A stretch of DNA of 64,000 bases from Burkholderiales bacterium (GCA_019747905.1 JAIEQG010000013.1:50482-114481); one strand, 5' to 3'; positions 6,653 to 19,199 are shown, counted from the first letter of the stretch. Notes: a model not told the origin generated them from the sequence alone. Program-made: numbers and translations.

Positions 6653-9600
6653 CTAGGCGTGCGTCGTCGCGGCGGCGAGTTCAGGACCTTCGTCCTGCCG
6701 CTTGTGGACCTTGCGCACCAGCACCGAGTAGATGGTGGGAATCACGAACAGCGTGAGCAGCGTTCCCAGCATCAGCCCGCCGACCACCACCCAGCCGATG
6801 GCCTGCCGCGACTCGGCACCGGCCCCGTGGGCCAGTGCCAACGGAACGGCACCCAGCACCATGGCGGCGGTCGTCATCAGGATCGGGCGCAACCGCAGCG
6901 TGGCGGCTTCCTTCACCGCCTCGACGCGATCCATGCCGCGCTCGCGCAACTGGTTGGCGAACTCGACGATGAGAATGCCGTGCTTGGTGATGAGGCCCAC
7001 CAGCATCACCAGGCCCACCTTGCTGTACACGTTGAGGGTGCCGCCGTTGCCAAGCTTGGTGTTGATGTACATCACCAGCAGCGCACCCGTCATGGCGAGC
7101 GGCACCGTGAACATGATGACCAGCGGACCGACGAAGCTCTCGAACTGCGCGGCGAGCACGAGGTAGATGACCAGCAGCGCCAAGCCGAAGGTGACGATGA
7201 GCTGCGCCCCCGACTCGCGGAACTCGCGCGAGATGTTGTCGAGGTCGGTGCGGGTCTCCGGTCCGAGTTCGGACTTCACCAGAGCGTCCATGTGATCGAG
7301 CACCTGGCCCAGCGTGTAACCGGGGGCCGGTTCACCGTTGATCACCGCTGCGCGCAGCTTGTTGAAGTGGTTGAGCTCCTTCGGACCGACCGACTCCGAG
7401 ATCGAGACGAGGTTCGACAACTGGTGCAGCGTGCCGTCGTTGCCGCGGACGTAGATGGACGTGAGGTCGCTCGGTTGCCGGCGCTTGTCGTCTTCCATCT
7501 GCACCACGACGTCGTACTGCTTGCCTTCGTGCTTGTAGCGAGTGACGTCGAAACCGCCCAGCAGCGTTTCCAGCGTGTGTCCGATGGTGCTCATCGACAC
7601 GCCGAGCGCCGAGGCCTTGTCGCGATCGATCTTCACCGAGAGCTGCGGCTTGTTGAGCTTGAGGTCCGTGTCGAGCGCGGTGATGCCCGGGTAATCGCGC
7701 AGCTTCGCCATCATCTTGTTGACCTTCACCTGCAGGTCTTCGTAGGTGTTGCCGTAGATGACGTACTCGACGCTCTTCGCGAACAGCGGCTGGCCGAGCG
7801 CGGGCAGCGCCTTGGTGAAGGACAGGGCGCCCGGCAGGCCGCCGAAGAGCTTCGGCCCCAGTTCCTTCGTGATCGCCTGCTGGCCGCGCTTGCGCTCGTG
7901 CCAGGGCTTCAGGACCGCGAAGGCCACGCCCAGGTTGACCGGGTTGGGCCGGTCCAGACCGGGGGCCACCACGGCAAACATCGTTTCGATCTCGGGTACG
8001 CCCTTGGTCATCTCCTCCACCGCGCGCATGTACCCATCGGTGTATTGCATGCTCGAGCCTTCCGGCGCGATCACGAAGGCGAGGAACATGCTCCGGTCTT
8101 CCTCGGGCGACAGTTCGTCCTTCAGCTGGCCGAGCAGCCAGACCATCGAGCCCAGCGTCGCGACCAGGACGATGGCGATGACCCAGCGGTGGCGCAGCGT
8201 CCAGCCGAGCATCGACCGGTAGACGTTCACCATGCCGGCGAAGAACGGCTCGGTCTTGTGATAGAGCCAACTGTGCTCGGCCCGCAGGAACTTCGAGCAC
8301 ATCATCGGCACCAGCGTCAGTGCGACGAAACCGGACACGATTACGGAGGTCGCCACGGTCAGCGCGAACTCCGTCATCAGCTTGCCGACGTTGCCTTCGG
8401 CGAAGGACAGCGGCGTGAACACGGCGGCGAGGGTGATGGTCATCGCGATGACCGCGAAGCCGATCTCCTTACTGCCGACCAGCGCCGCCTTGAAGGGCTT
8501 CATGCCCTCCTCGATGTGGCGGTGCACGTTCTCCAGCACGACGATGGCGTCGTCCACCACGAGACCGATCGAGAGCACCACGCCGAGCAGGGTCAGCGTG
8601 TTGATGGAGAACCCCAGCACCTTGAGGAACGTGAAGTGCCCGATGATGGACACGGGGATCGTCACGGCAGGGATGATCGTCGCGCGGAACTCGCGCAGGA
8701 AGAAGAAGATCACCAGCACCACGAGGGCCAGGGCGACGTAGATCGTTTCCATCACGGAATCGACCGAGGCCTGGATGAACTGCGAGGTGTCCACCGCAAC
8801 CCACATCTTCATGCCGGGCTGCAGCGAGGTTTCGAGGCGCGGCAGCAGTTCTTTCACTGCCTGGGCCACTTCCAGCGTGTTGGCCGTCGATTGCTTGACG
8901 ACACCCAGGCCAAGCGCCTCTTCGCCACGGACCCGCACGATCTTGCGGTTCTCGTACGGTCCCGGGGCTGCGCGGCCGACGTCGCGGAGGCGGATCGGAT
9001 ACCCGTTCACCTCCTTGATGATCATGTTGTTGAATTCTTCGGGCGACAGCAGATCGGTGCGCGCCTGGACGGTGAACTCGCGTTGCGTGCTCTCGATGCG
9101 ACCGCCGGGCGAATCGAGGTTCTGGCGCTTCAGCGCGTCCTCGACGTCCTGCGCGGTGAGGCCCTGGGCGGCGAGACGCTCGCGGTCGAGCCACACCCGC
9201 ATCGCATACTTGCGTTCCCCGCCGATGATGACCGAGGCCACCCCGGGAATCGCCTTGAGCGGGTCGGTGAGGTAGCGGTCGGCGAAGTCGGTCATCTCCA
9301 TCGGCGTGTGCTGGCCGCTGGTGAGTGCCACCCATACGATGGGCTGGGCGTCGGCTTCGATCTTCGACACCACCGGGTTGTCAGCGGCGGCCGGAATGTT
9401 CTTCCGCACGCGCGCGACCCGGTCGCGCACGTCGTTCGCGGCGCCGTCGATCTCGCGGCTGGTGACGAAGGTGACAGTGATCTGGCTCACCTCTTCACGG
9501 CTCTGCGACTTGATGGTCTTGATGCCCTCGATGCCCGACAGCGAATCTTCCAGCGGCTGGGTAATGGCACTTTCCATCACCTGCGCCGTCGCACCCTTGT

Positions 9601-9751
9601 AGACGGTGCGCACCGAGACCACCGGGGGGTCGATGTTCGGGTACTCGCGCACCGGCATTCGCGTGTACGACAGGAAGCCCATCAGGATGATGAGCAGGCT
9701 CATGACGGTGGCGAGCACCGGACGGCGGATGGAGACGTCGGAGAGCACCAT
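6653..9751 (-). CDS. RND efflux transporter permease (HAE1/AcrB-like)
   Basis: 1032 aa. Sequence MVLSDVSIRRPVLATVMSLLIILMGFLSYTRMPVREYPNIDPPVVSVRTVYKGA..., with a twelve-TM-type hydrophobic pattern. Confidence 0.95.
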   Translation of the reverse strand: MVLSDVSIRRPVLATVMSLLIILMGFLSYTRMPVREYPNIDPPVVSVRTVYKGATAQVMESAITQPLEDSLSGIEGIKTIKSQSREEVSQITVTFVTSREIDGAANDVRDRVARVRKNIPAAADNPVVSKIEADAQPIVWVALTSGQHTPMEMTDFADRYLTDPLKAIPGVASVIIGGERKYAMRVWLDRERLAAQGLTAQDVEDALKRQNLDSPGGRIESTQREFTVQARTDLLSPEEFNNMIIKEVNGYPIRLRDVGRAAPGPYENRKIVRVRGEEALGLGVVKQSTANTLEVAQAVKELLPRLETSLQPGMKMWVAVDTSQFIQASVDSVMETIYVALALVVLVIFFFLREFRATIIPAVTIPVSIIGHFTFLKVLGFSINTLTLLGVVLSIGLVVDDAIVVLENVHRHIEEGMKPFKAALVGSKEIGFAVIAMTITLAAVFTPLSFAEGNVGKLMTEFALTVATSVIVSGFVALTLVPMMCSKFLRAEHSWLYHKTEPFFAGMVNVYRSMLGWTLRHRWVIAIVLVATLGSMVWLLGQLKDELSPEEDRSMFLAFVIAPEGSSMQYTDGYMRAVEEMTKGVPEIETMFAVVAPGLDRPNPVNLGVAFAVLKPWHERKRGQQAITKELGPKLFGGLPGALSFTKALPALGQPLFAKSVEYVIYGNTYEDLQVKVNKMMAKLRDYPGITALDTDLKLNKPQLSVKIDRDKASALGVSMSTIGHTLETLLGGFDVTRYKHEGKQYDVVVQMEDDKRRQPSDLTSIYVRGNDGTLHQLSNLVSISESVGPKELNHFNKLRAAVINGEPAPGYTLGQVLDHMDALVKSELGPETRTDLDNISREFRESGAQLIVTFGLALLVIYLVLAAQFESFVGPLVIMFTVPLAMTGALLVMYINTKLGNGGTLNVYSKVGLVMLVGLITKHGILIVEFANQLRERGMDRVEAVKEAATLRLRPILMTTAAMVLGAVPLALAHGAGAESRQAIGWVVVGGLMLGTLLTLFVIPTIYSVLVRKVHKRQDEGPELAAATTHA

Positions 9752-9756
9752 GGCGA

Positions 9757-10929
9757 TCAGCCCCCCGTCTTCGTGCCGGCGGCGGGCGCGCCCGCGGTGG
9801 CCGGCGGAGCCGACGGCAGCACCATCACCGGTGCGCCGTCGCGCATCTTCATCTGGCCGTCGGTCATGACGATGTCGTGATCCTTCAGGCCTTCGAGCAC
9901 TTCGACCTCACCCGGACGCCGCACGCCTAGCACCACCTTGGTGAGCACGGCCTTGCCGTCCACGATCTTGTAGACGAACGAATCGCGGCCCTGCGGCCAG
10001 ATGGCCTCTTCCGGGATGATGATGGCGTTGGGGCGCGACTCGAGCAAGATGCTCACGCGGCCGAACATGCCCGGCTTCAGCTTGACCTGGCTGTTCGGGA
10101 CCTGGGCCCGCGCCAGCACGGTGCGGCTCTTTTCGTCGACGGTGGGTTCGATCGCGTAGATGCGGCCCACGAACACGTCGTTCGGGAAGGCATCGGTGCG
10201 GATGCTGACCGTGAGCCCGGGCTTCAATTTGGAGACGTAGACTTCCGGCACGCGAAAATCGAGCTTGAGCGAACTCACGTTCTCGAGGCGCACGATGTCG
10301 TCGCCGGCCTTCACGTACGCACCGGGGCTGATCAGTCGCAGGCCCACGATGCCGCTGAAGGGGGCCTCGACCGTGGATTTGGCGAGTGCCACTTCATCCT
10401 GCTGCTGCTTGGCGAGGGCAACATCCATGCTGCCCTTGGCGACGTCCACGGCATCCTGGCTCACGAACTTCTGCGCGAGCAGTTCCTTGGCGCGCTCGTA
10501 GCGCTGGCGCTCCTTGGTTGCGTCGGCGGTCGAACCGGCCAGCCTCGCCTGGTACTCGGACGGGTCGAGGGTTACCAGCTTGGCGCCCTTCTGGACCGCC
10601 TGACCTTCCTGGAAGTTGAGCGCCATGACGCGGCCCGGAATTTCCGAGCGGATCACCACGGACTCTGCGGGGAGCAGCGTGCCGACCGCGGTGATGTCGT
10701 TCTCGACCTTGCCTACGCGCACCGGCTCGGCCTTCACGGGGAGTCCCATGGGCTTGGCTGGGCCGCCGGCGGCCGGACCGCCTGGCTTCGGCGCATCGCC
10801 GGCCTTGGTCTCGGCCGGCTTTGCTGCTCCGGGCGAGGGCGGCTTCGATTCGGAGTTGCTCCCGCAGCCGACCATCATCAAAGCGGCCAGTGCGGCCGGC
10901 AGGAGTGAAACGGACAACGGACGGCGCAT
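9757..10929 (-). CDS. RND efflux periplasmic adaptor (membrane fusion protein), lipoprotein
   Basis: Start at ATG 10929. MRRPLSVSLLPAALAALMMVGCGS is a lipobox. The remainder has coiled-coil and beta-barrel MFP regions. There is a 5-nt gap to the RND permease. Confidence 0.9.
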   Translation of the reverse strand: MRRPLSVSLLPAALAALMMVGCGSNSESKPPSPGAAKPAETKAGDAPKPGGPAAGGPAKPMGLPVKAEPVRVGKVENDITAVGTLLPAESVVIRSEIPGRVMALNFQEGQAVQKGAKLVTLDPSEYQARLAGSTADATKERQRYERAKELLAQKFVSQDAVDVAKGSMDVALAKQQQDEVALAKSTVEAPFSGIVGLRLISPGAYVKAGDDIVRLENVSSLKLDFRVPEVYVSKLKPGLTVSIRTDAFPNDVFVGRIYAIEPTVDEKSRTVLARAQVPNSQVKLKPGMFGRVSILLESRPNAIIIPEEAIWPQGRDSFVYKIVDGKAVLTKVVLGVRRPGEVEVLEGLKDHDIVMTDGQMKMRDGAPVMVLPSAPPATAGAPAAGTKTGG

Positions 10930-11139
10930 GATTTTCACTGGAGAAGCCTCGAATGATGCGTGCAGCGGTGAAAAAACCCCCGGCGCCATCTTCTCTCTCG
11001 AGAATGAGGCGCCGCGGACACTGAGGTTGGTCGCCGCTGGGATGCATTCCTACCCCTACGTCTTCCAGGCGGCGGTCTGGTGCTGACCAAAGGGTCAGTA
11101 ATTGCTCCTTATCATAGCGGAGTTTACTCGCCCTTCGCC

Positions 11140-12042
11140 ATGCGCTTATCCCTCGAAGCCCTCGCGACTCTCGATGCCATCGCCCGCCGCGGCAGCTTCG
11201 CCGCGGCCGCCGAGGAGTTGAATCGCGTGCCCTCGGCCGTGACCTACACCGTCCAGAAACTCGAGCAGGATCTCGGCGTGCCGCTGTTCGATCGCAGCGG
11301 CCACCGCGCGAAACTGACCCCCGCCGGCGCCGAACTGCTGCGCGAAGGCCGCCACCTCCTGCGCTCGGCTGCGGAGATCGAGCGCCGGGTCCAGCGCCTC
11401 GCCGAGGGTTGGGAGTCCGAGCTTGCCATTGCGGTGGACGACATCATCGCGCTCGAGCGCATCTATCCGCTGATGGCGCGGTTCTACGCCCTTAATCCGG
11501 GGACGCGGTTGCGTGTAGGCGCGGAAGTGCTGGCCGGTTCGTGGGATGCCCTGCAGTCCGGCCGGGCCGACCTCGTGATCGGCGCCTCCGGCGACCCACC
11601 GCCCGAGGGCGGTTGTTCGCTGCAGCCCATGGGCGTGGTGGCGTTCGATTTCGTGGTCGCGCCGAACCATCCGCTCGCGGCTGCGCCGGAACCGCTGGCG
11701 CCGGACGCCATCCTCGAATACCGCGCCATCCTGGTCGCGGACAGTTCCCGTACCCTGCCGGCGCGCACCACCGGCCTCATCTCGGGCCAGGATTGCCTGA
11801 CGGTGCCAAGCATGCGCGCGAAGATCGACGCCCATGTGGCGGGCCTGGGGGTAGGCTATCTGCCGGCGCATCGGGCGCGCCCGCTCGTCGCCGCAGGCTC
11901 TCTGGTGACCAAGTCCGTACTGGAATCCAAGCCGACCGCGCAGCTCTACGTTGCCTCGCGACCGCGGGGATCGGGCAAAGCGCTGAAGTGGTTCCTCACC
12001 CAGCTCGAAGATCCGGCAACGCTCGGATCCTTTCTTGCCTGA
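11140..12042 (+). CDS. LysR family transcriptional regulator
   Basis: MRLSLEALATLDAIARRGSFAAAAEELNRVPSAVTYTVQKLEQDLGVPLFDRSGHRAKLTPAG. Divergent from the efflux operon. Confidence 0.9.
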   Translation: MRLSLEALATLDAIARRGSFAAAAEELNRVPSAVTYTVQKLEQDLGVPLFDRSGHRAKLTPAGAELLREGRHLLRSAAEIERRVQRLAEGWESELAIAVDDIIALERIYPLMARFYALNPGTRLRVGAEVLAGSWDALQSGRADLVIGASGDPPPEGGCSLQPMGVVAFDFVVAPNHPLAAAPEPLAPDAILEYRAILVADSSRTLPARTTGLISGQDCLTVPSMRAKIDAHVAGLGVGYLPAHRARPLVAAGSLVTKSVLESKPTAQLYVASRPRGSGKALKWFLTQLEDPATLGSFLA

Positions 12043-12119: not shown

Positions 12120-12542
12120 TCAGGTCAGATTGCCGCGGCGTCCCGCGGGACAGGCCCGGCGCATGGCGATCATGGACTCGGCCTCGCGGTCGCGGCGCAT
12201 TTCCTCGCGGACCTGATCGATGTCGAGGTTCTGCGCGCGCCGCAGGAGTGCTTCCAACTGGGGCGCCGAGAACGCGGCCGGGCCGCAGTACAGCCCGACA
12301 CCCTTTCGGAACAGCACCAGTGCCGGTGCCGCCTCGATGCCGAACAGCCCGGCCAGCGCATTTGAATCCGTCCAGGGGACGCGCCGGAAGGCCACTTCGG
12401 GCATGCGCTGCATCACATCCTCGAAGGCCGCGCGGAAGCCCCGGCCTGCTTCACTGCCCTCGTCGTCGAACACGATCGCGAGGGTCGCGTGGGCCGCGAT
12501 CAGCGCGTCGAGAGTGTCCTGGTCGGGGAGCGTGGCGACCAT
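12120..12542 (-). CDS. thioredoxin-fold protein lacking the CxxC active site, with a basic C-terminal extension
   Basis: 140 aa. The pattern LAIVFDDEG...FRRVPWTDSNALAGLFGIEAAPALVLFRKGVGL looks like a Trx fold, but no CxxC is present. It starts 10 nt after the thioredoxin gene on the same strand. Confidence 0.7.
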   Translation of the reverse strand: MVATLPDQDTLDALIAAHATLAIVFDDEGSEAGRGFRAAFEDVMQRMPEVAFRRVPWTDSNALAGLFGIEAAPALVLFRKGVGLYCGPAAFSAPQLEALLRRAQNLDIDQVREEMRRDREAESMIAMRRACPAGRRGNLT

Positions 12543-12552
12543 AGGCAGGCCC

Positions 12553-12936
12553 TCAGGACTGGGCGGCGGGCTCTGCCGCGTCGCGGGCCGCGATTTCGCT
12601 GTGGACTTTTGCCATGTCGATCCCCTTCACCTCTTCGATCAGCTTTTCGAAGGCGCCGCCCATCATAGCGCCGGGCTGGGAGAAGAGGATGATCTGCTCG
12701 CGAAACACCATCAGGGTCGGAATCGCGCGGATGCTGAACTGCTGGGCGATCTCCGGCACGTCCTCGGTGTTGAGCTTGGCGAAGACGACGTCGGGATGCT
12801 GTTCCGACGTGGCCTCGAACACCGGGGCGAAGGCGCGACAGGGGCCGCACCACGGCGCCCAGAAATCGATGATCACGATGTCGTTGCCCTCGATCGTGGA
12901 CTCGAAGTTGTCCAGGGTCAGTTCGACGGTTGCCAT
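12553..12936 (-). CDS. thioredoxin (WCGPC active site)
   Basis: IVIIDFWAPWCGPCRAFAPVFE...IRAIPTLMVFRE. 127 aa with a short C-terminal tail. Confidence 0.9.
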   Translation of the reverse strand: MATVELTLDNFESTIEGNDIVIIDFWAPWCGPCRAFAPVFEATSEQHPDVVFAKLNTEDVPEIAQQFSIRAIPTLMVFREQIILFSQPGAMMGGAFEKLIEEVKGIDMAKVHSEIAARDAAEPAAQS

Positions 12937-13158: not shown

Positions 13159-13632
13159 ATGAAACCGAACATCGGCCTGAGCGATGCCCAACGCAAGGGT
13201 GTCGTGGAGATCCTGAACCGCCTGCTCGCAGACGAGGTGGTGCTGTACATCAAGACCCGCAACTACCATTGGAATGTGGAAGGTCCCGACTTCAGCGAGA
13301 CACACAAGTTCTTCGAGGCGCAGTACGAAGAGCTCGACGAGATCATGGACGACGTCGCGGAGCGCGCGCGGGCCCTGGGCGGGCGCGCCGCAGGTTCGCT
13401 CGCGGCGTATCTCAAGCTCACCAAGCTGAAGGAAGACGACGGCAAGACCGTGGGGGAGAAAGCGATGATCAAGGACTTGCTGATCAGCCACGAAACCATC
13501 ATCCAGCGCCTGCGCAAGGAAGTGGAGATCGTCGGCGACAAGTTGGGCGATGTCGGCACCAACGACTTCATCACCGGCTTGATCGAGGCGCACGAGAAGA
13601 TGGCGTGGATGCTGCGCTCGTACTTGGCGTGA
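13159..13632 (+). CDS. dps: Dps family DNA-protection/ferroxidase protein
   Basis: ATG at 13159 with GGAG 7 nt upstream. Sequence MKPNIGLSDAQRKGVVEILNRLLADEVVLYIKTRNYHWNVEGPDFSETHKFFEAQYEELDEIMDDVAERARALGG. Confidence 0.9.
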   Translation: MKPNIGLSDAQRKGVVEILNRLLADEVVLYIKTRNYHWNVEGPDFSETHKFFEAQYEELDEIMDDVAERARALGGRAAGSLAAYLKLTKLKEDDGKTVGEKAMIKDLLISHETIIQRLRKEVEIVGDKLGDVGTNDFITGLIEAHEKMAWMLRSYLA

Positions 13633-13659
13633 GGTCGGTGGTGCCGACCCCACGCCAAG
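13623..13659 (+). terminator. long hairpin spanning the dps stop codon (no U-tract)
   Basis: CTTGGCGTG-a-GGTCGG-tggtg-CCGACC-c-CACGCCAAG gives 15 paired positions. The dps TGA lies at 13630-13632. Confidence 0.45.
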
Positions 13660-13691
13660 TGCAGTCCAATGGTGGCCCCCCACTTCCCCGT

Positions 13692-13714
13692 CCCTTCTCC
13701 CCGGGGGAGAAGGG
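13692..13714. repeat. GC hairpin related to the C5/G5 repeat units
   Basis: CCCTTCTCCCC-g-GGGGAGAAGGG is a perfect 11-bp dyad between dps and the response-regulator gene. Confidence 0.35.
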
Positions 13715-13742
13715 GGGATTCCACGAATGAATGGGGTAACCA

Positions 13743-15437
13743 ATGCCTGACGCGCGTCCCGTCATTCTCGCCGTCGACGACGAACCGGAGGTCTCGCGCG
13801 CCGTGGCGCGCGATCTGCGCGAAGCCTACGGCGAGCACTACCGGATCCTCCGTGCCGAGTCGCCGCTCACGGCCATGGAGACCCTGACCGAACTCCGGTT
13901 GCGCAGCGATACCGTCGCCTTGCTGTTGTCGGACCAGCGCATGCCCGAGATGAGCGGCGTCGAGTTTCTCGAGCAGGCCTCCAAGCTGTTCCCCACCGCC
14001 CGCCGGGTTCTGCTCACGGCGTACACCGATACCGAAGCAGCGATCCGCGCGATCAATCGCGTGCGCCTCGACTACTACCTGATGAAACCGTGGCATCCGC
14101 CGGAGCACAACCTCTATCCGGTGCTCGGCGACCTCCTGGAAGATTGGCGCTCCACGCAGAAGCCGCAGTTCCGCGGCGTGCAGCTCATCGATCATCGCTG
14201 GTCGCCGCTGGGCCACGAGCTGCGTGAATTTCTCTCGGGCAATCACGTGCCCTACCGGCGGCTCGATGTCGAGCATGATCCGGAAGCGCAGCGCATCATC
14301 GAACTGCTCACGCCCGAAGAGAAGACAGCGTGCAATGCCCCCAAACTGAAGGGCCTGCCGCTGGTGGTGCTGCCGGACGGCACGCGCCTGCAGCGGCCCA
14401 GCCCGACCGTGCTGGCAGAGCGTCTCGGAATCTCGACCCACAGCGCGACACAGGTGTACGACCTCGTGATCGTGGGCGGCGGACCGGCGGGCCTCGCGGC
14501 CGCGGTTTACGGTGCCTCCGAAGGGCTCAAGAGCGCGATCGTCGAGCGCGAAGCCCCGGGCGGCCAGGCCGGCACCAGTTCCCGCATCGAGAACTACCTC
14601 GGTTTCCCTTCGGGCTTGAGCGGCGCCGACCTGTCGCGCCGCGCCGTTGCGCAGGCGCGGCGTTTCGGTGCCGATCTGATTCTCACGCAGGCTGTCACGG
14701 GTTTGCGCGTGCAGGCGCCCTACAAGTTCGTGCAGTTGTCGGATGGCTCCGAAGTCGGCTGCCGCGCGCTGGTGATCGCGAGCGGCGTGCAGTACCGCAA
14801 GTTGCCGGCACCCGGCCTCGAGGAACTGGCCGGCGTCGGTGTGTTCTATGGGGCTGCGACCACCGAGACCGCCGTCTGCCAGGGCCAGGACGTGGTGATC
14901 GTCGGCGGCGGCAATTCGGCAGGGCAGGGCGCGATCTTCCTGGCGGACTACGCGCGGAGCGTCACCATCATCGTGCGCGGCGAAGGGCTCGCGGCGACGA
15001 TGTCGCGTTATCTCATCGACCGCATCGAAGGGACCGCCAACATCACGGTGTTGCCTTTCACGCAGGTGGCGCGAGTGAGTGGCACCGATCACCTGGAAAC
15101 CGTGACACTCGGCAACGTGCGCACCGGCGAAGAGGAAACCCGCGACGTCGCGGCGCTGTTCATCTTCATCGGTGCCGAGCCGCGCACCGATTGGCTGGGC
15201 GATTCCGCGCTGCGCGACGATCATGGCTTCATCCTGACCGGCCGTGACCTGCTGGTCGACGGCAAATGGCCCCCGGTGTGGACCCTCGAGCGCGACCCGT
15301 TCCTGCTAGAGACCTGCATCCCCGGCGTGTTCGCGGCCGGCGACGTGCGCCACGGTTCGATGAAACGGGTCGCCGCAGCCGTGGGCGAAGGGTCCATGGC
15401 CGTGTCGTTCGTCCACCAGTTTCTCGCCGACCTGTGA
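13743..15437 (+). CDS. fused response regulator / thioredoxin-reductase-like FAD oxidoreductase (no CxxC redox motif)
   Basis: The N-terminal REC domain reads VILAVDDEPEV...LLLSDQRMPEMSGVEFL...YLMKPW. A roughly 110-aa linker domain follows, then YDLVIVGGGPAGLAAAVYGASEGL and VVIVGGGNSAGQGAIFLA dinucleotide-binding motifs. Where TrxR has CATC, this sequence reads YGAATTETAVCQG. Confidence 0.9.
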   Translation: MPDARPVILAVDDEPEVSRAVARDLREAYGEHYRILRAESPLTAMETLTELRLRSDTVALLLSDQRMPEMSGVEFLEQASKLFPTARRVLLTAYTDTEAAIRAINRVRLDYYLMKPWHPPEHNLYPVLGDLLEDWRSTQKPQFRGVQLIDHRWSPLGHELREFLSGNHVPYRRLDVEHDPEAQRIIELLTPEEKTACNAPKLKGLPLVVLPDGTRLQRPSPTVLAERLGISTHSATQVYDLVIVGGGPAGLAAAVYGASEGLKSAIVEREAPGGQAGTSSRIENYLGFPSGLSGADLSRRAVAQARRFGADLILTQAVTGLRVQAPYKFVQLSDGSEVGCRALVIASGVQYRKLPAPGLEELAGVGVFYGAATTETAVCQGQDVVIVGGGNSAGQGAIFLADYARSVTIIVRGEGLAATMSRYLIDRIEGTANITVLPFTQVARVSGTDHLETVTLGNVRTGEEETRDVAALFIFIGAEPRTDWLGDSALRDDHGFILTGRDLLVDGKWPPVWTLERDPFLLETCIPGVFAAGDVRHGSMKRVAAAVGEGSMAVSFVHQFLADL

Positions 15438-16822
15438 TCGGGCTCGAACTCCTCCGCGCCATGCCGTTGTTCAGCGGCCTGTCGGACGAACGTCTCGATT
15501 GGGTCTGCCACCGGCTCACCGACTTCGAACTTGCGCCCGGTGAGGCACTGATCCACGAAGGCGACGAGGGCGCGAGCTTCGTGGTCCTGATCGAAGGCTC
15601 GTTGCTCATTACCAAGCGCTCCAACAGCGTCGAACTGCCGGCCGGTCGCCAGGATGCACCGGCCTTCATGGGCGAGATTCCGCTGCTCTCCGGTACGCCG
15701 GCCCAGGTCACGGTGCGCTCCGCCGGGCACAGCCGCCTGCTGCGCCTGGACGAGGATACCTTTCGCGAACTGATCGCGACCGACGTCACCTTCAGCCGCA
15801 CCATCTTCCAGACGCTCTCGAGGCGCGTTTCGGGCCTCGAATCCTTCGTGCGCCAGCGCGAGAAGCTGGCCTCCCTCGGAACGCTGACTGCCGGCCTCGC
15901 CCACGAGCTCAACAACCCCGCGGCGGCCGTGGCACGTTCCACCGACCGCATGCGGGCGATCGCGCGCGATCTCGATTCCATCACGTGCGAACTGCACGAC
16001 TCCGATCTTCCGCAGGAGGCGATGTACGCTCTGAAGGCGCTGAGCGACACGGCCATCAGCGGGCCCGTGCCGGCGCGCACCCCGATCGAAGAGAGCGATC
16101 GCGAAGAAGCCTTCGGCGAGTGGCTGGACGGCCGCAAGGTGCACGATGCATGGAAGATCGCTGCCGTGTTCGCTGCATCGAAGCTCGAGTTGCCGGCCGT
16201 GCAATCACTGCTCGGCAGCGCGGGCGATGCCGTCTCGCCGGCGGCCCGCTGGCTCGCGGCCACCGTCGAACTCGCGGCGCTGGTCGACGAAGCCAACCAC
16301 GGTGCCTCGCGCATCGCCGATCTGGTGAAGGCGATGAAGTCCTATTCGTACATGGACCAGGCGCCGAAGCAGGAGGTGGACATTCACGAAGGCATCGAAG
16401 CCACGCTCACCATCATGCGCCACAAGCTGAAGCACGGCGTCGAAGTGGTGCGCGAATACGATCGGTCGTTGCCGAAACTGTCGGTGTACGGCTCGGAGCT
16501 CAATCAGGTGTGGACCAACCTGATCGACAACGCGTTGGACGCGATGGACTGCAAGGGCACACTTACTATCCGCACGCGGCGCGACGGCGGCGCCGCCGTC
16601 GTCGAAGTGGGTGATTCAGGTCCCGGCATCCCGCCGGACGTGCAGACGCGGCTGTTCGAACCGTTCTTCACCACGAAGCCCGTCGGCAAGGGCACCGGTC
16701 TCGGGCTCGATATCACCTGGCGTATCGTCGTGAATCGCCACGGCGGTACCATCAAGGTCCATTCGAAGCCGGGCGACACGAAATTCCTGGTGGTGCTGCC
16801 GATCGATTCCGAGGTTCACTGA
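15434..16822 (+). CDS. cyclic-nucleotide-binding-domain sensor histidine kinase
   Basis: The GTG at 15434 overlaps the upstream stop (GTGA). The cNMP-binding-like N-terminus reads LRAMPLFSGLSDERLDWV...GEALIHEGDEGASFVVLIEGSL...FMGEIPLL. The HisKA H-box is LAHELNNPAAA. The HATPase motifs are NLIDNALDAM, DSGPGIP and GTGLGL. Confidence 0.9.
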   Translation: MIGLELLRAMPLFSGLSDERLDWVCHRLTDFELAPGEALIHEGDEGASFVVLIEGSLLITKRSNSVELPAGRQDAPAFMGEIPLLSGTPAQVTVRSAGHSRLLRLDEDTFRELIATDVTFSRTIFQTLSRRVSGLESFVRQREKLASLGTLTAGLAHELNNPAAAVARSTDRMRAIARDLDSITCELHDSDLPQEAMYALKALSDTAISGPVPARTPIEESDREEAFGEWLDGRKVHDAWKIAAVFAASKLELPAVQSLLGSAGDAVSPAARWLAATVELAALVDEANHGASRIADLVKAMKSYSYMDQAPKQEVDIHEGIEATLTIMRHKLKHGVEVVREYDRSLPKLSVYGSELNQVWTNLIDNALDAMDCKGTLTIRTRRDGGAAVVEVGDSGPGIPPDVQTRLFEPFFTTKPVGKGTGLGLDITWRIVVNRHGGTIKVHSKPGDTKFLVVLPIDSEVH

Positions 16823-16837
16823 CCCCCGAGGTACGCG

Positions 16838-17095
16838 ATGACCTGCACCCATCTCGACACCATTCAGGAAGTCACCCCGAGCGGCCGCGGCTGCAAGGAG
16901 TGCCTGGAGACGGGCGACACCTGGGTGCACCTGCGCCTGTGCCTCACCTGCGGCCACGTCGGATGCTGCGATTCGTCGAAGAACCGGCATGCGACGAAGC
17001 ACTTCCATGTGACGCAGCACCCGATCGTGCGGTCATTCGAACCCGGGGAAGACTGGGCTTGGTGCTTTGTCGACAGCGAATTCCTCGAAGTCTGA
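16838..17095 (+). CDS. UBP-type zinc-finger domain protein (stand-alone zf-UBP)
   Basis: 85 aa: CTHLDTI...GCKECLETGDTWVHLRLCLTCGHVGCCDSSKNRHATKHFHVTQHPIVRS. The Cys/His pattern matches zf-UBP. It starts 15 nt after the kinase stop. Confidence 0.85.
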   Translation: MTCTHLDTIQEVTPSGRGCKECLETGDTWVHLRLCLTCGHVGCCDSSKNRHATKHFHVTQHPIVRSFEPGEDWAWCFVDSEFLEV

Positions 17096-17168
17096 CCTCG
17101 AGCTTGCGGGCAGAGCCCGACGATCATATGCATTGCGCGGTAGGAACAACCTTGGTGTGGAGGCAAGG

Positions 17169-19199
17169 ATGACGAAGAAAAGCCCTGTCGGGACGAACAG
17201 ATGTTCGAACCTACTCAGGCGCGCGCTGGTTCACCATCTCGCCGCCGGATGCTCCTTCATGGCAGCGGCGTTCCCGGTGACAGCGATGGACGCAAGGGAC
17301 TTCGGTGCCGTTCGTTCACCTTTCCTCCCGCGGTTGGTCGCAGACGACGACCCTGAACTTTGTTCGATTGTATTGGCGTTGGCGCGGCGTACCTTTCTCT
17401 CCGGAGACTCTGACATGTGGGTCAATCGAGTCGATGGGAACGGTATTCGATGGGTCCCGTGGGAGGATCAGACGGCCTCTGAGGACTCGGCGCGCGGTCC
17501 CATACGTTCGATCGAACTTGATCTTGACGGCACCGGAACCAAACAGACTCTCGCCCTGCGCCACTACTTTCACACGTGGCGAGGTGAGAACTATTACGCC
17601 TTTGTCTTTCCGTCAAAGGGCAGTCTTGAATCGGTGATCAAGGATCCAAAGGCGGATTCCGACAATGGGGATACCGCAGAATCTCGATTGCCCGCCGATC
17701 CGGGGAGTCTGGATCCGGGTATTCGCTACTACCCGGATGGAGAGACGACGACTGGCGAAGCGGCAGAGGGAAGTGAATGGGAGGACCACCAACTCTTCGA
17801 GTTTCGGGGGCGCTACTACTTCTACGGATATCAGCATTGGCTGCACGGTCCACTGCAGAGGAGCCTTCCTGTCTATCGCCTGCAGGGGAACGGTCGATTG
17901 AAACCCGCTTGCAGGGTACAGATGTGGCCCATGGAGGACCGGGTCGCCGCCGCTGATTCCGTCGAGGGTGTTGCTGGTTACTTTGGAGTGCTTCGCCGCA
18001 TCGGTACTGGAGGTGTCGGCGACTGCGGAACGATGCATGCCAACGATATTCACGATTGGGGCGCCGAATTTGCGATGATGAATGCCATCATCCGCCCGTG
18101 GACCCTGTCCGAGCGGCGTCGCGAGGGCTCTGCGAAGTTGGAGCGAACGTTGATGGCGGATTGGAGTTTCGCTGGTGTCTGGAACCGCCGCGAGTATCAG
18201 ACCCTGCTGGAACATGAACCCTCGGCTTTGCAAGGCCTCGAGCGGCACTTCCAGAAGGCATTCGGGCTAAAGACAGACAACGCGCGGCGACAGGCGAAAC
18301 TCGCACTTGATCAGATAGTCGCAGCCTGGATCATGGTACCTGGCAGCTATGGAGACTTCCAAACGGTTGATCCGTTCCGGCAACGGATCATTCAAGGGAC
18401 CCTTACGAAAAGCGACATAGTCGAGTCGGGCAGTCCGAAGGAAGAAGGACGCGATGATCAATTGATTTTTCCCGTGTCGCCCTACCTCCACGACGCCGTG
18501 GAGTCCTCAAGTATTGCAAAGAGCTTGCTCGACGCCGGCTTCAGAGTTGATGCCAGGAACGACTTTGGCAAGACAGCCTTGATGATGGCTGCGCACATGA
18601 ATCGACCGGACGTGGTGGCACTGCTGCTTCGGCGCAAGGCCGCTGTTGATGCAAGGACCAAGGAGGTGAATCAGTGCGGCATGCAGATAAACCGAAGCGG
18701 TCGAACTGCGTTGATGTACGCAGCCGAGAATGCTGGCATCGAAGTGCTTCGATTGCTGGTCGAAGCGGGTGCGGACAGGAAGGCGGTGGACAGCCGCGGC
18801 GATGGCGTCGCTTACTATCTTGCCAAGAATCCCTACCTGACCGACGCGCAGAAACAGATGGATGTGGGCGCTCTCGTCAATAGCGTGCGACCGGTCCAGG
18901 GACCGAGCTTCAAATGCGGACCTGCATTGAGCGCCATAGATCGCCTGGTGTGCTCGGATGGCGTGCTTGCAATGCAAGATCGGTATCTCGCCGATGCCTA
19001 CGCCCGGTGGCTATCCCGCAAGGGCGAAGAAGCACGCAGGGACCAACGCACATGGCTCGCGCGCAGAAACAAGACCTGCGGCGCATTGACGAAGGACGAA
19101 AGTTTATCGTGCCTGCAGCAGTCCACACGTACGCGAATCCGCTACCTCCAGAATCGCTTGGCTGAGCAGGGAACAGACGCAGCCGGCGCGCGCCGCTGA
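17169..19199 (+). CDS. exported protein: unknown ~440-aa N-terminal domain + ankyrin repeats + DUF1311/LprI-like C-terminal domain
   Basis: ATG at 17169 with GGAGG upstream. The hydrophobic leader is HHLAAGCSFMAAAFPVTAMDA. Ankyrin repeats include GKTALMMAAHMNRPDVVALLLRRKAAVDA and GRTALMYAAENAGIEVLRLLVEAGADR. The C-terminus reads FKCGPALSAIDRLVCSDGVLAMQDRYLADAYARWL...QRTWLARRNKTCG...LSCLQQSTRTRIRYLQNRL. GC content is visibly lower than the flanks. Confidence 0.8.
   Translation: MTKKSPVGTNRCSNLLRRALVHHLAAGCSFMAAAFPVTAMDARDFGAVRSPFLPRLVADDDPELCSIVLALARRTFLSGDSDMWVNRVDGNGIRWVPWEDQTASEDSARGPIRSIELDLDGTGTKQTLALRHYFHTWRGENYYAFVFPSKGSLESVIKDPKADSDNGDTAESRLPADPGSLDPGIRYYPDGETTTGEAAEGSEWEDHQLFEFRGRYYFYGYQHWLHGPLQRSLPVYRLQGNGRLKPACRVQMWPMEDRVAAADSVEGVAGYFGVLRRIGTGGVGDCGTMHANDIHDWGAEFAMMNAIIRPWTLSERRREGSAKLERTLMADWSFAGVWNRREYQTLLEHEPSALQGLERHFQKAFGLKTDNARRQAKLALDQIVAAWIMVPGSYGDFQTVDPFRQRIIQGTLTKSDIVESGSPKEEGRDDQLIFPVSPYLHDAVESSSIAKSLLDAGFRVDARNDFGKTALMMAAHMNRPDVVALLLRRKAAVDARTKEVNQCGMQINRSGRTALMYAAENAGIEVLRLLVEAGADRKAVDSRGDGVAYYLAKNPYLTDAQKQMDVGALVNSVRPVQGPSFKCGPALSAIDRLVCSDGVLAMQDRYLADAYARWLSRKGEEARRDQRTWLARRNKTCGALTKDESLSCLQQSTRTRIRYLQNRLAEQGTDAAGARR

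Follow-up and report, generated by a model that had tools for sequence, protein, structure and literature searches.

A Response Regulator with a Thioredoxin Reductase-like Output Module That Lacks the Redox-active CxxC, and Its Conserved Genomic Partners

Introduction

Which chemistry could a response regulator switch when its output has the fold of a thioredoxin reductase (TrxR) and no longer carries the cysteine pair with which such enzymes reduce thioredoxin? The question is raised by a gene at 13743..15437 (+ strand) of a 64,000-nucleotide stretch of DNA from a Burkholderiales bacterium (GCA_019747905.1 JAIEQG010000013.1:50482-114481), which was analysed as a whole and is called the window throughout. 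The open reading frame (ORF) starts with ATG and encodes 564 amino acids plus a stop codon; together with its Pfam and NCBIfam matches, it gives a receiver (REC) domain, a glutaredoxin (Grx)-like domain and a TrxR-like module, in that order. An initial annotation, made from the DNA sequence alone, had proposed the same succession of parts, and all the motif strings that it quoted are found by translation where it had placed them.

The gene is the response regulator of a conserved module, in which it is followed by a histidine kinase with a CAP-type sensor domain and then by a small zf-UBP zinc-finger protein. We lean, with modest confidence, towards reading its output as an NAD(P)H flavoenzyme gated by phosphorylation and distinct from TrxR. 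We thus infer that the output is enzymatic redox chemistry, and neither transcription nor thioredoxin reduction; the neighbouring genes suggest a role in oxidative stress or thiol redox balance.

Results

The C-terminal part of the protein (residues 237-564, 14451..15434, + strand) is a complete TrxR-fold flavoprotein module with two dinucleotide-binding domains, as had been proposed. Pfam Pyr_redox_2 covers residues 239-550 (E 1e-36), the FAD motif GGGPAG stands in LVIVGGGPAGLAA (nt 14463-14501) and the NAD(P)H motif GGGNSAGQ in VVIVGGGNSAGQG (nt 14892-14930). In HMMER comparisons with the Protein Data Bank (PDB) the TrxR 7jyp is the best match (E 5e-49), genuine TrxRs span 5e-49 to 1e-41, and E. 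coli TrxR is found at ~1e-32. BLASTP against a sequence taken to be that of E. coli TrxB gives 31% identity (E 2e-38). In the HMMER and BLASTP alignments the C-terminus coincides with the end of TrxR, and the top Foldseek and HMMER matches of the module are TrxRs. The profile TIGR01292 (thioredoxin-disulfide reductase) matches end to end with 229 bits, which is under its equivalog cut-off of 343 bits; the scores are 117 bits against a cut-off of 644 for PRK10262 and 54 bits against 339.9 for TIGR04018 (YpdA). An AlphaFold2 (AF2) model of the full protein has a predicted local distance difference test (pLDDT) value of 84.9. It fits TrxRs in the flavin-reducing (FR) state (5mh4, 'FR conformation', and the TrxR-Trx complex 1f6m) with template modelling (TM) scores of 0.87-0.91, against ~0.6 for most other TrxR entries, including 5mjk in the flavin-oxidizing (FO) state ('FO conformation').

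The former redox-active-site loop, Y369-G-A-A-T-T-E375-T-A-V-C379-Q-G, lies at 14847..14885 (+ strand) and reads YGAATTETAVCQG. We checked the CxxC column in four alignments (HMMER to 7jyp, 5uth and 4gcm, and BLASTP to E. coli TrxB). In all four, the catalytic cysteines of TrxR fall on G370/A371 and T373/T374, and the column of the acid-catalyst Asp is occupied by E375. The CxxC is therefore lost, as the initial annotation held, and one cysteine, C379, stands in the loop. The whole protein has four cysteines (197, 340, 379 and 525) and a CxxC nowhere, so a canonical dithiol relay is impossible. The module shows two further changes. In the same four alignments the HRRxxxR motif of TrxR (HRRDGFR in E. 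coli TrxB) falls on VRGEGLA, where R412 alone is kept (R412-G413, nt 14976-14981), and the FAD domain carries a family-specific insertion, VDGKWPPVWTLERDPFLLE (15255..15311, + strand), with W513, R517, P519 and E523, which corresponds to a 19-residue gap in 7jyp and 4gcm and to a 14-residue gap in E. coli TrxB.

The comparison with low-molecular-weight TrxRs (E. coli 1TDE/1F6M, Thermosipho 7JYP) can thus be drawn in both directions. Shared are the two-dinucleotide FAD/NAD(P)H fold at 31-34% identity, the GGGPAG, GD, GGQ, ENYxGF and GGGNSA motifs, the length and the C-terminus, and the fit to the FR conformer. The family of the window protein differs by G-A-A-x-T in place of CxxC, by Glu in place of the catalytic Asp, by (V/I)RG in place of HRRxxxR, by the 14-19-aa insertion with W513, R517 and E523, and by the N-terminal fusion of a REC and a Grx-like domain.

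The loss of the cysteines is a trait of a whole large family and of its sister clade, and no local lesion. In a word-indexed search, 8000 of 8000 scored candidates had E < 1e-10; the family exceeds 8000 clusters at 90% identity. The best 120 homologues are full-length REC-plus-oxidoreductase proteins of 546-585 aa, 58-93% identical to the window protein, with named sources in Burkholderiales, Paraburkholderia, cyanobacteria, Chloroflexota, Gemmatimonadaceae, Blastocatellia and Alphaproteobacteria. A scan with one genome per species yielded at least 599 confirmed loci; the 80 that were kept for neighbourhood counts are 49-61% identical to the window protein and include Burkholderiales, Chloroflexota, Cyanobacteria, Bacteroidota, Acidobacteriota, Actinomycetota, Planctomycetota and Dormibacterota, to which plasmid records add Deinococcus, Streptomyces and Nocardia. 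Full-length identity is 50-64% across at least nine phyla, Gemmatimonadota and Deinococcota among them, and no exact copy of the 564-aa protein was found in the assembly collection searched. Nothing sets the window gene apart within this family. The output had been called unusual, a description that does not hold in view of the family size, its spread and its earlier cataloguing: the architecture is not rare.

An alignment of 88 sequences, the window protein and those of 87 loci, contains no CxxC at the TrxR site (0/88); elsewhere, where a conserved pair might have restored the dithiol, we found incidental, non-conserved CxxC at other positions in 7/88. Y369, E375, N391, Q395, R412, L416, W513, R517, E523, D534 and R542 are invariant in the 88 sequences, N391 and Q395 belonging to the GGGNSAGQ motif and D534 to the GD motif. 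G370 is conserved to 99% and P519 in 87/88, and the glycines of GGGPAG are invariant in a 76-sequence alignment (A2). Residue conservation of this kind indicates that purifying selection acts strongly on a site from which the dithiol has gone.

The middle domain (residues 141-236, 14163..14450, + strand) tells a parallel story. It had been described as having a Trx/Grx-like look without a cysteine pair, and both halves of that description are borne out. Modelled alone (residues 138-238), it reaches a pLDDT of 87.6, and in both AF2 models it has the thioredoxin-fold topology beta-alpha-beta-alpha-(alpha)-beta-beta-alpha. A profile of the domain built from 50 sequences (A4) matches mycoredoxin-1 of M. 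tuberculosis (2LQO, Rv3198.1) with E 3.8e-10, and other glutaredoxins with 1e-4 to 1e-3; Foldseek returns Mrx1, glutaredoxins, ArsD, glutathione S-transferase (GST) N-domains and the Grx domain of human TrxR3. The domain is thus specifically mycoredoxin/glutaredoxin-like, with its own active-site cysteine replaced by serine. In the profile alignment, the WCGYC of mycoredoxin-1 lies over W153-S154-P-L-G (WS at nt 14199-14204), and the TVP cis-proline motif of redoxins aligns with L205-P206 (P206 at nt 14358-14360). Mycoredoxin-1 and NrdH-like Grx share with the domain its topology, the Trp before the active site, the TVP-aligned proline and the NPS motif; the difference is CGYC there and S-P-x-(S/G) in the window family. 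Position 154 is Ser in 81/88 sequences and Cys in 0/88, so thiol-disulfide chemistry is impossible at that site, and two redox centres have been lost together.

The receiver is canonical. REC and its alpha5/linker helix occupy residues 1-140 (13743..14162, + strand), and Pfam PF00072 (Response_reg) matches residues 8-120 with E 2e-13 and 50.8 bits against a cut-off of 30.2, so that both profile searches that had been proposed, Response_reg and Pyr_redox_2, gave matches. The phospho-acceptor D64 stands within LLLSDQRMPEMSG (nt 13932-13934), accompanied by D12 and D13 (nt 13776-13781), T92 (nt 14016-14018) and K115 (nt 14085-14087). All five residues are present in 88/88 sequences, and position 112, that of the aromatic switch, holds Tyr or Phe in 88/88; this is a genuine receiver and not a pseudo-receiver. 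The REC residue statistics of a mixed alignment (A3) are unreliable and were set aside. Among solved structures, the receivers of an HD-domain regulator (2rjn) and of HupR (2jk1) come closest.

The same Grx-like/TrxR-like unit is also found behind another input. When 1.84 billion representatives at 50% identity were searched with residues 125-564, that is, with the receiver removed, 3379 clusters had E < 1e-30. The N-termini of the best 150 of these were classified by phmmer as REC in 63 and as a CAP/cNMP (cyclic nucleotide)-type domain in 47, with no N-terminal domain detected in 40, some of which are fragments and others Grx-like plus TrxR-like proteins of 411-433 aa. A CxxC at the TrxR site occurs in none of the best 149-150 representatives. 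The active-site consensus is YYGAxxxEAxxx in the REC type and YYAATxxEAxLC in the fused CAP/cNMP type, and Y369, E375, R412, W513, R517, E523, R536 and R542 form the majority at their positions in every group of the wider superfamily. A fused cyclic-nucleotide-binding relative on plasmid pDATS01 of Deinococcus aquaticus (L169 3527-5251) reads WYGAARTEAPG in its active site, GVWYGAARTEAPG, and has no CxxC. As REC and cNMP-type domains both serve to receive regulatory signals, the most plausible role of the Grx-like/TrxR-like unit is that of an effector under their control.

The histidine kinase encoded directly downstream (15461..16822, + strand) has a CAP/cNMP-type sensor domain, a DHp domain and a catalytic ATPase domain (Pfam cNMP_binding, HATPase_c). 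Among the 80 kept loci, one genome per species, 70 have a full-length kinase homologue no further than 600 bp away, which shares the strand of the response regulator in 69; it is downstream of the response regulator in 52 and upstream in 18, which are mostly Bacteroidota. The H-box AGLAHELNNP and the N, G1, F and G2 boxes are conserved, and a conserved insertion of ~110 residues separates the H-box helix from the second DHp helix. We take this protein to be the cognate kinase of the response regulator, with putative phosphotransfer between the two, as its sequence and position would predict. The CAP-type sensor is carried by the kinase in the REC type and fused to the flavoprotein in the sister clade, a Rosetta-stone-like relationship that points to one type of signal with two routes of control.

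What the kinase senses is probably not a canonical ligand of such domains. Its CAP-type domain has no phosphate-binding-cassette Arg and reads GEIPLLSGTPAQV, where acidobacterial homologues have GxLPFSRM; we rejected canonical cAMP/cGMP sensing, as the Arg that contacts the cyclic phosphate is absent from the window kinase and from most homologues. A role of the module in anti-phage defence was rejected as well: PADLOC returned no match for the response regulator or the zf-UBP protein, and a weak match of the cNMP-type domain of the kinase to Pycsar-type effectors.

The start of the kinase gene can be placed at the ATG at 15461 or at an alternative GTG at 15434 that overlaps the stop codon of the response regulator (ctGTGA, 15434-15437). 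The GTG start would add nine residues (VIGLELLRA-MPLF...), and, because of the overlap, it would imply translational coupling. In homologous operons of Streptomyces and Gemmatimonadaceae the stop of one gene and the start of the other overlap or abut.

The third gene of the module (16838..17095, + strand) encodes an 85-aa zf-UBP zinc-finger protein (Pfam PF02148, E 5e-15). It adjoins 17 of the 80 REC-type loci (e.g., L006, L009, L015, L020, L022 and L052; L numbers denote loci). In the fused CAP/cNMP type, for which 80 metagenomic loci (L088-L167) were counted and which has neither kinase nor receiver, it adjoins 27. As it is present where no kinase is, the zf-UBP gene tracks the flavoprotein and not the phosphorelay. 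In Streptomyces fungicidicus the trio is named 'FAD-dependent oxidoreductase', 'ATP-binding protein' and 'UBP-type zinc finger domain-containing protein' by PGAP, with overlapping stops and starts. The Cys/His ligands are strongly conserved; CCDSS is found at the presumed position of CGR(Y), the motif which we take to be the contact of eukaryotic zf-UBP domains to the ubiquitin C-terminus. Binding of a C-terminal Gly-Gly is an improbable candidate for its function: CGR(Y) is replaced, and no protein of the module ends in GG. We know of no function described for bacterial zf-UBP proteins.

Unbiased clustering of the neighbouring ORFs of REC-type loci revealed one further recurrent set, the genes of ergothioneine biosynthesis. 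egtB is found in 8/80 and egtD in 7/80 loci, and the eight loci concerned (L041, L055, L059, L064, L067, L068, L075 and L078) belong to three phyla: four are from Acidobacteriota, two from Dyadobacter, one from Saprospiraceae and one from Burkholderiales. The egt genes are on the same strand and flank the module directly, and zf-UBP usually separates them from the flavoprotein gene; they occur in at least three gene orders and with two non-orthologous types of EgtB. NCBIfam scores are 519 bits against a cut-off of 360 for EgtB of L059 and 297 against 291 for EgtD of L064. Fused CAP/cNMP-type metagenomic loci have egt genes in 2/80 cases (L111 and L153).

Two other neighbours are given as context only. 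Directly upstream of the response regulator gene, 13159..13632 (+ strand) encodes a ferritin-like protein (Pfam Ferritin, E 3e-30) whose best NCBIfam matches are Dps models, under their cut-offs. A dps gene adjoins the flavoprotein in L007, a close relative, in L078 and in 6/80 fused CAP/cNMP loci (L088, L089, L127, L128, L132 and L149); that it recurs beside the flavoprotein in distant members of both clades may point to a connection with iron or peroxide stress. Divergent from dps, a thioredoxin and thioredoxin-like pair lies at 12120..12936 (- strand). The thioredoxin (12553-12936, WCGPC) scores 100 bits with TIGR01068, above the cut-off of 96.8. The 140-aa ORF next to it (12120-12542) has a weak Trx match and DDEGSEAG at the position of WCGPC, and is thus the second redoxin relative in this neighbourhood to lack the cysteines. 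Both genes of the pair are also present in L007. Within ~0.5 kb of the flavoprotein gene, trx is found in 5/80 fused CAP/cNMP loci, in four of which (L122, L126, L136 and L140) it is directly upstream of zf-UBP. Taken together, the egt, dps and trx neighbours suggest oxidative-stress, thiol or metal physiology.

The GC-rich region between dps and the response regulator (13633-13742) contains a short hairpin, GGTCGGTGGTGCCGACC, directly after the dps stop, and a second short one, CCCTTCTCCC/GGGAGAAGGG, at 13692-13714. The folding energy does not exceed what shuffling of the sequence gives (z = -0.67), and a search of this region for a sigma-70-like promoter returned none.

Further out, a cluster that seems unrelated to the module occupies 6653-10989 (- strand), with the gene of a resistance-nodulation-division (RND) efflux pump (1032 aa) and, upstream of it, a 410-aa ORF, which is the periplasmic adaptor, by its position and by the Pfam matches of its counterpart in L007. 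Beside it lies a divergent LysR-type regulator (11080-12042, + strand); given its place near trx and dps we considered OxyR, and rejected this because it is PunR/AllS-like and more likely serves the adjacent RND genes. On the other side, directly after zf-UBP, an ORF of up to 710 aa (17067-19199, + strand) has ankyrin repeats and a C-terminal LprI (lysozyme-inhibitor-like) domain. Its start overlaps the end of zf-UBP, so that the true start is probably later, and the ORF is absent from the syntenic relative L007.

Discussion

Both ancestral redox centres have been removed from this protein and everything else has been kept, which implies a conserved chemistry other than the reduction of thioredoxin. 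The module would bind FAD and NAD(P)H and would be catalytic, since the cofactor motifs and the new active-site and insertion residues are invariant. We hypothesize that control runs as follows. The CAP-type domain of the kinase may bind a ligand, in most members without the canonical Arg for a cyclic phosphate, and the ligand-bound kinase would phosphorylate D64. The alpha5 helix of the receiver is predicted to continue through a short linker into the Grx-like domain, which may be the fossil of a redoxin once fed with electrons by the fused reductase and which could still dock on the NAD(P)H domain, close to the loop that once held the CxxC (residues 369-379). Phosphorylation would change this docking, probably through dimerisation of receivers on the obligate TrxR-type dimer, and the changed docking might alter the FO/FR rotation of the NAD(P)H domain and thereby start or stop the passage of hydride from NAD(P)H to FAD. 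The fit of the AF2 model to the FR state, itself a prediction, is compatible with such a rotation. Electrons would then pass straight from the flavin, with no dithiol in between, to an acceptor other than thioredoxin, for which we would prefer an oxidised low-molecular-weight thiol or thione or a small oxidant (quinone, Fe(III) or O2) and, as a second choice, the co-encoded zf-UBP protein.

Several points weigh against a phospho-gated flavoenzyme of this kind. For every member of the family, FAD binding, nucleotide preference and catalysis are what we infer from sequence. The HRRxxxR motif for the 2'-phosphate of NADPH is reduced to one Arg, so that nucleotide use is uncertain. The proposed docking and rotation steps derive from analogy with TrxR and AhpF and from a single AF2 model. 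C379 is present in 91% of the 88 close relatives, in 7/62 divergent REC-type representatives and in 33/47 of the fused CAP/cNMP type. The zf-UBP, egtBD, dps and trx associations each concern a minority of loci and none is universal, and the window itself has no egt genes. The distribution of C379 also decided the fate of a candidate mechanism, a universal monothiol catalyst in the style of CoADR/Npx: being rare in divergent REC-type members, C379 cannot be the universal catalytic residue, and this chemistry was ruled out for the family as a whole and kept as possible for the sub-clade.

The alternative that survives best is that the module is a redox or NAD(P)H sensor, a pseudoenzyme or a scaffold, which would turn over no substrate, might report the status of flavin or pyridine nucleotides, and would act through protein contacts, for instance with zf-UBP or the kinase, while the receiver adds a second signal. 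The disappearance of the catalytic dithiols from both the TrxR-like and the Grx-like domain agrees with it, and so does the degenerate NADPH-specificity motif. No substrate gene is universally linked, the kinase alone being near-universal, and a recurrent small zinc-finger partner suits an output by protein interaction. We nevertheless regard this alternative as rather unlikely: the near-perfect conservation of the dinucleotide motifs and of Y369, E375, W513, R517 and E523 is more typical of a catalytic site, and the same module behind REC and CAP/cNMP inputs is the usual pattern of an effector enzyme.

A more specific version of the flavoenzyme reading can be built on the recurrent neighbours. 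The module would be a signal-controlled reductase whose substrate is a low-molecular-weight thiol or thione in oxidised form, with ergothioneine disulfide or another oxidised form of ergothioneine as the most specific candidate. The mycoredoxin-like domain without its cysteine might have turned into a binding site for the thiol or thione, which the TrxR-like flavin would reduce directly, as in YpdA/Bdr; the zf-UBP protein would be an obligatory partner, and the signal received by the CAP domain would set the activity through kinase and receiver or through direct fusion. YpdA/Bdr reduces bacillithiol disulfide directly by its flavin. To our knowledge, no bacterial enzyme of ergothioneine recycling has been described, and none under two-component control. 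Put in such detail the proposal is speculative, and we hold it to be quite improbable.

The initial annotation had thought of an FNR-like enzyme, which turns out to be the weaker option. Here the protein would be a TrxR-type ferredoxin/flavodoxin-NAD(P)+ reductase (FNR), comparable to Bacillus YumC or Chlorobaculum FNR, passing single electrons to iron-sulfur proteins or flavodoxin under control by phosphorylation. Among enzymes that have the TrxR fold and lack CxxC, TrxR-type FNRs are the best known and, with YpdA/Bdr, provide precedents for NAD(P)H-dependent reductases of this sort. FNRs in the PDB (2zbw, 3ab1 and 3lzw) are detectable at E 1e-18 to 1e-21, and the iron-storage gene dps, occasionally adjacent, has some bearing here because the release of iron needs a reductase. 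However, the module is far closer to genuine TrxRs, as the E-values given above indicate; homology to FNRs (E ~1e-20) and to YpdA/Bdr (54 bits with TIGR04018) is weak, and fusions to sensor or Grx-like domains are absent from both. In TrxR-type FNRs a C-terminal sub-domain stacks against the flavin, whereas the window protein ends where TrxR ends and has no C-terminal extension. No recurrent ferredoxin or flavodoxin gene was seen among the neighbours, and FNRs have no counterpart of the fused Grx-like domain. An FNR is, in our estimate, very unlikely.

That the protein is after all a genuine thioredoxin or redoxin reductase, using cysteines from elsewhere or from a partner, has in its favour the TrxR names in JGI, PGAP and some papers (including the Streptomyces 'trxB3'), the real thioredoxin gene of the window and those close to five fused CAP/cNMP loci, and 31% identity to TrxB, but it is scarcely credible given that the active-site column holds no CxxC in 88 close relatives and 149 representatives, with none conserved elsewhere, that TIGR01292 stays below its equivalog cut-off, that the fused redoxin-like domain is Cys-less too, and that C379, the sole conserved Cys, is missing from most distant REC-type members.

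The architecture is known in its parts, as both TrxR-fold flavoenzymes and response regulators with enzymatic outputs have precedents, and it is not categorically new. A redoxin-fold domain fused to a TrxR-type reductase is shared with AhpF, the NTRC proteins and thioredoxin-glutathione reductase, and Foldseek aligns the full AF2 model with intact AhpF over ~575 columns (E 3e-30). These enzymes keep both Cys pairs and relay electrons through them, whereas the window family has lost both and places a receiver in front. Control of a fused enzyme domain by a receiver is shared with CheB, PleD/WspR, RpfG and RsbU-type response regulators, and the window receiver is closest to the RpfG/HupR type.

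Catalogues of response regulators already hold a place for the family. P2CS/P2RP list a 'TrxB' class that includes S. coelicolor SCO7298 with its kinase SCO7297 (PMC9739842), one regulator of this class was reported from a thermophilic cyanobacterium (PMC9953108), and the combination of REC with a pyridine-nucleotide-disulfide oxidoreductase was mentioned by Galperin in 2018 (PMC5847659). The window protein fits this class by its REC and Pyr_redox_2 domains and by the kinase pairing in 70/80 loci. Polysulfide and acid shock are reported to induce SCO7298 ('trxB3', 'putative thioredoxin reductase'; PMC9952706, PMC2631018). Going by its published class label, SCO7298 probably belongs to the family, and if it does, its induction would speak for the flavoenzyme reading. 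In an orthologue from a Streptomyces plasmid, the W-S and GSALTE...C motifs are present and CxxC is absent.

A literature search that covered few subscription-journal papers returned REC-TrxR-like proteins in censuses and in the two expression papers on SCO7298, and no study of the function or structure of these or of cNMP-TrxR-like proteins, in agreement with the initial annotation, which knew of no mechanistic characterisation; within the same scope there was no report of the double loss of redox centres, of the CAP-domain kinase partner, of the zf-UBP partner or of the activity of any member. Database names are as generic as had been anticipated ('FAD-dependent oxidoreductase', 'thioredoxin reductase (NADPH)'), and PGAP calls the sister clade 'cyclic nucleotide-binding domain-containing thioredoxin-disulfide reductase'. 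This last name, 'thioredoxin reductase (NADPH)' and 'trxB3' are probably wrong or over-specific.

Conclusions

For the annotation of genomes, the consequence is that members of this family should not count toward the thioredoxin system of an organism. For bacterial zf-UBP proteins, a consistent genomic partner is now at hand for the first time, and the recurrent neighbours, namely the ergothioneine synthesis genes, dps and trx, give concrete hypotheses on the substrate. Taken together, the CAP-domain kinase, the receiver-flavoprotein and the zf-UBP protein make up a compact system for a non-transcriptional two-component output in redox physiology.

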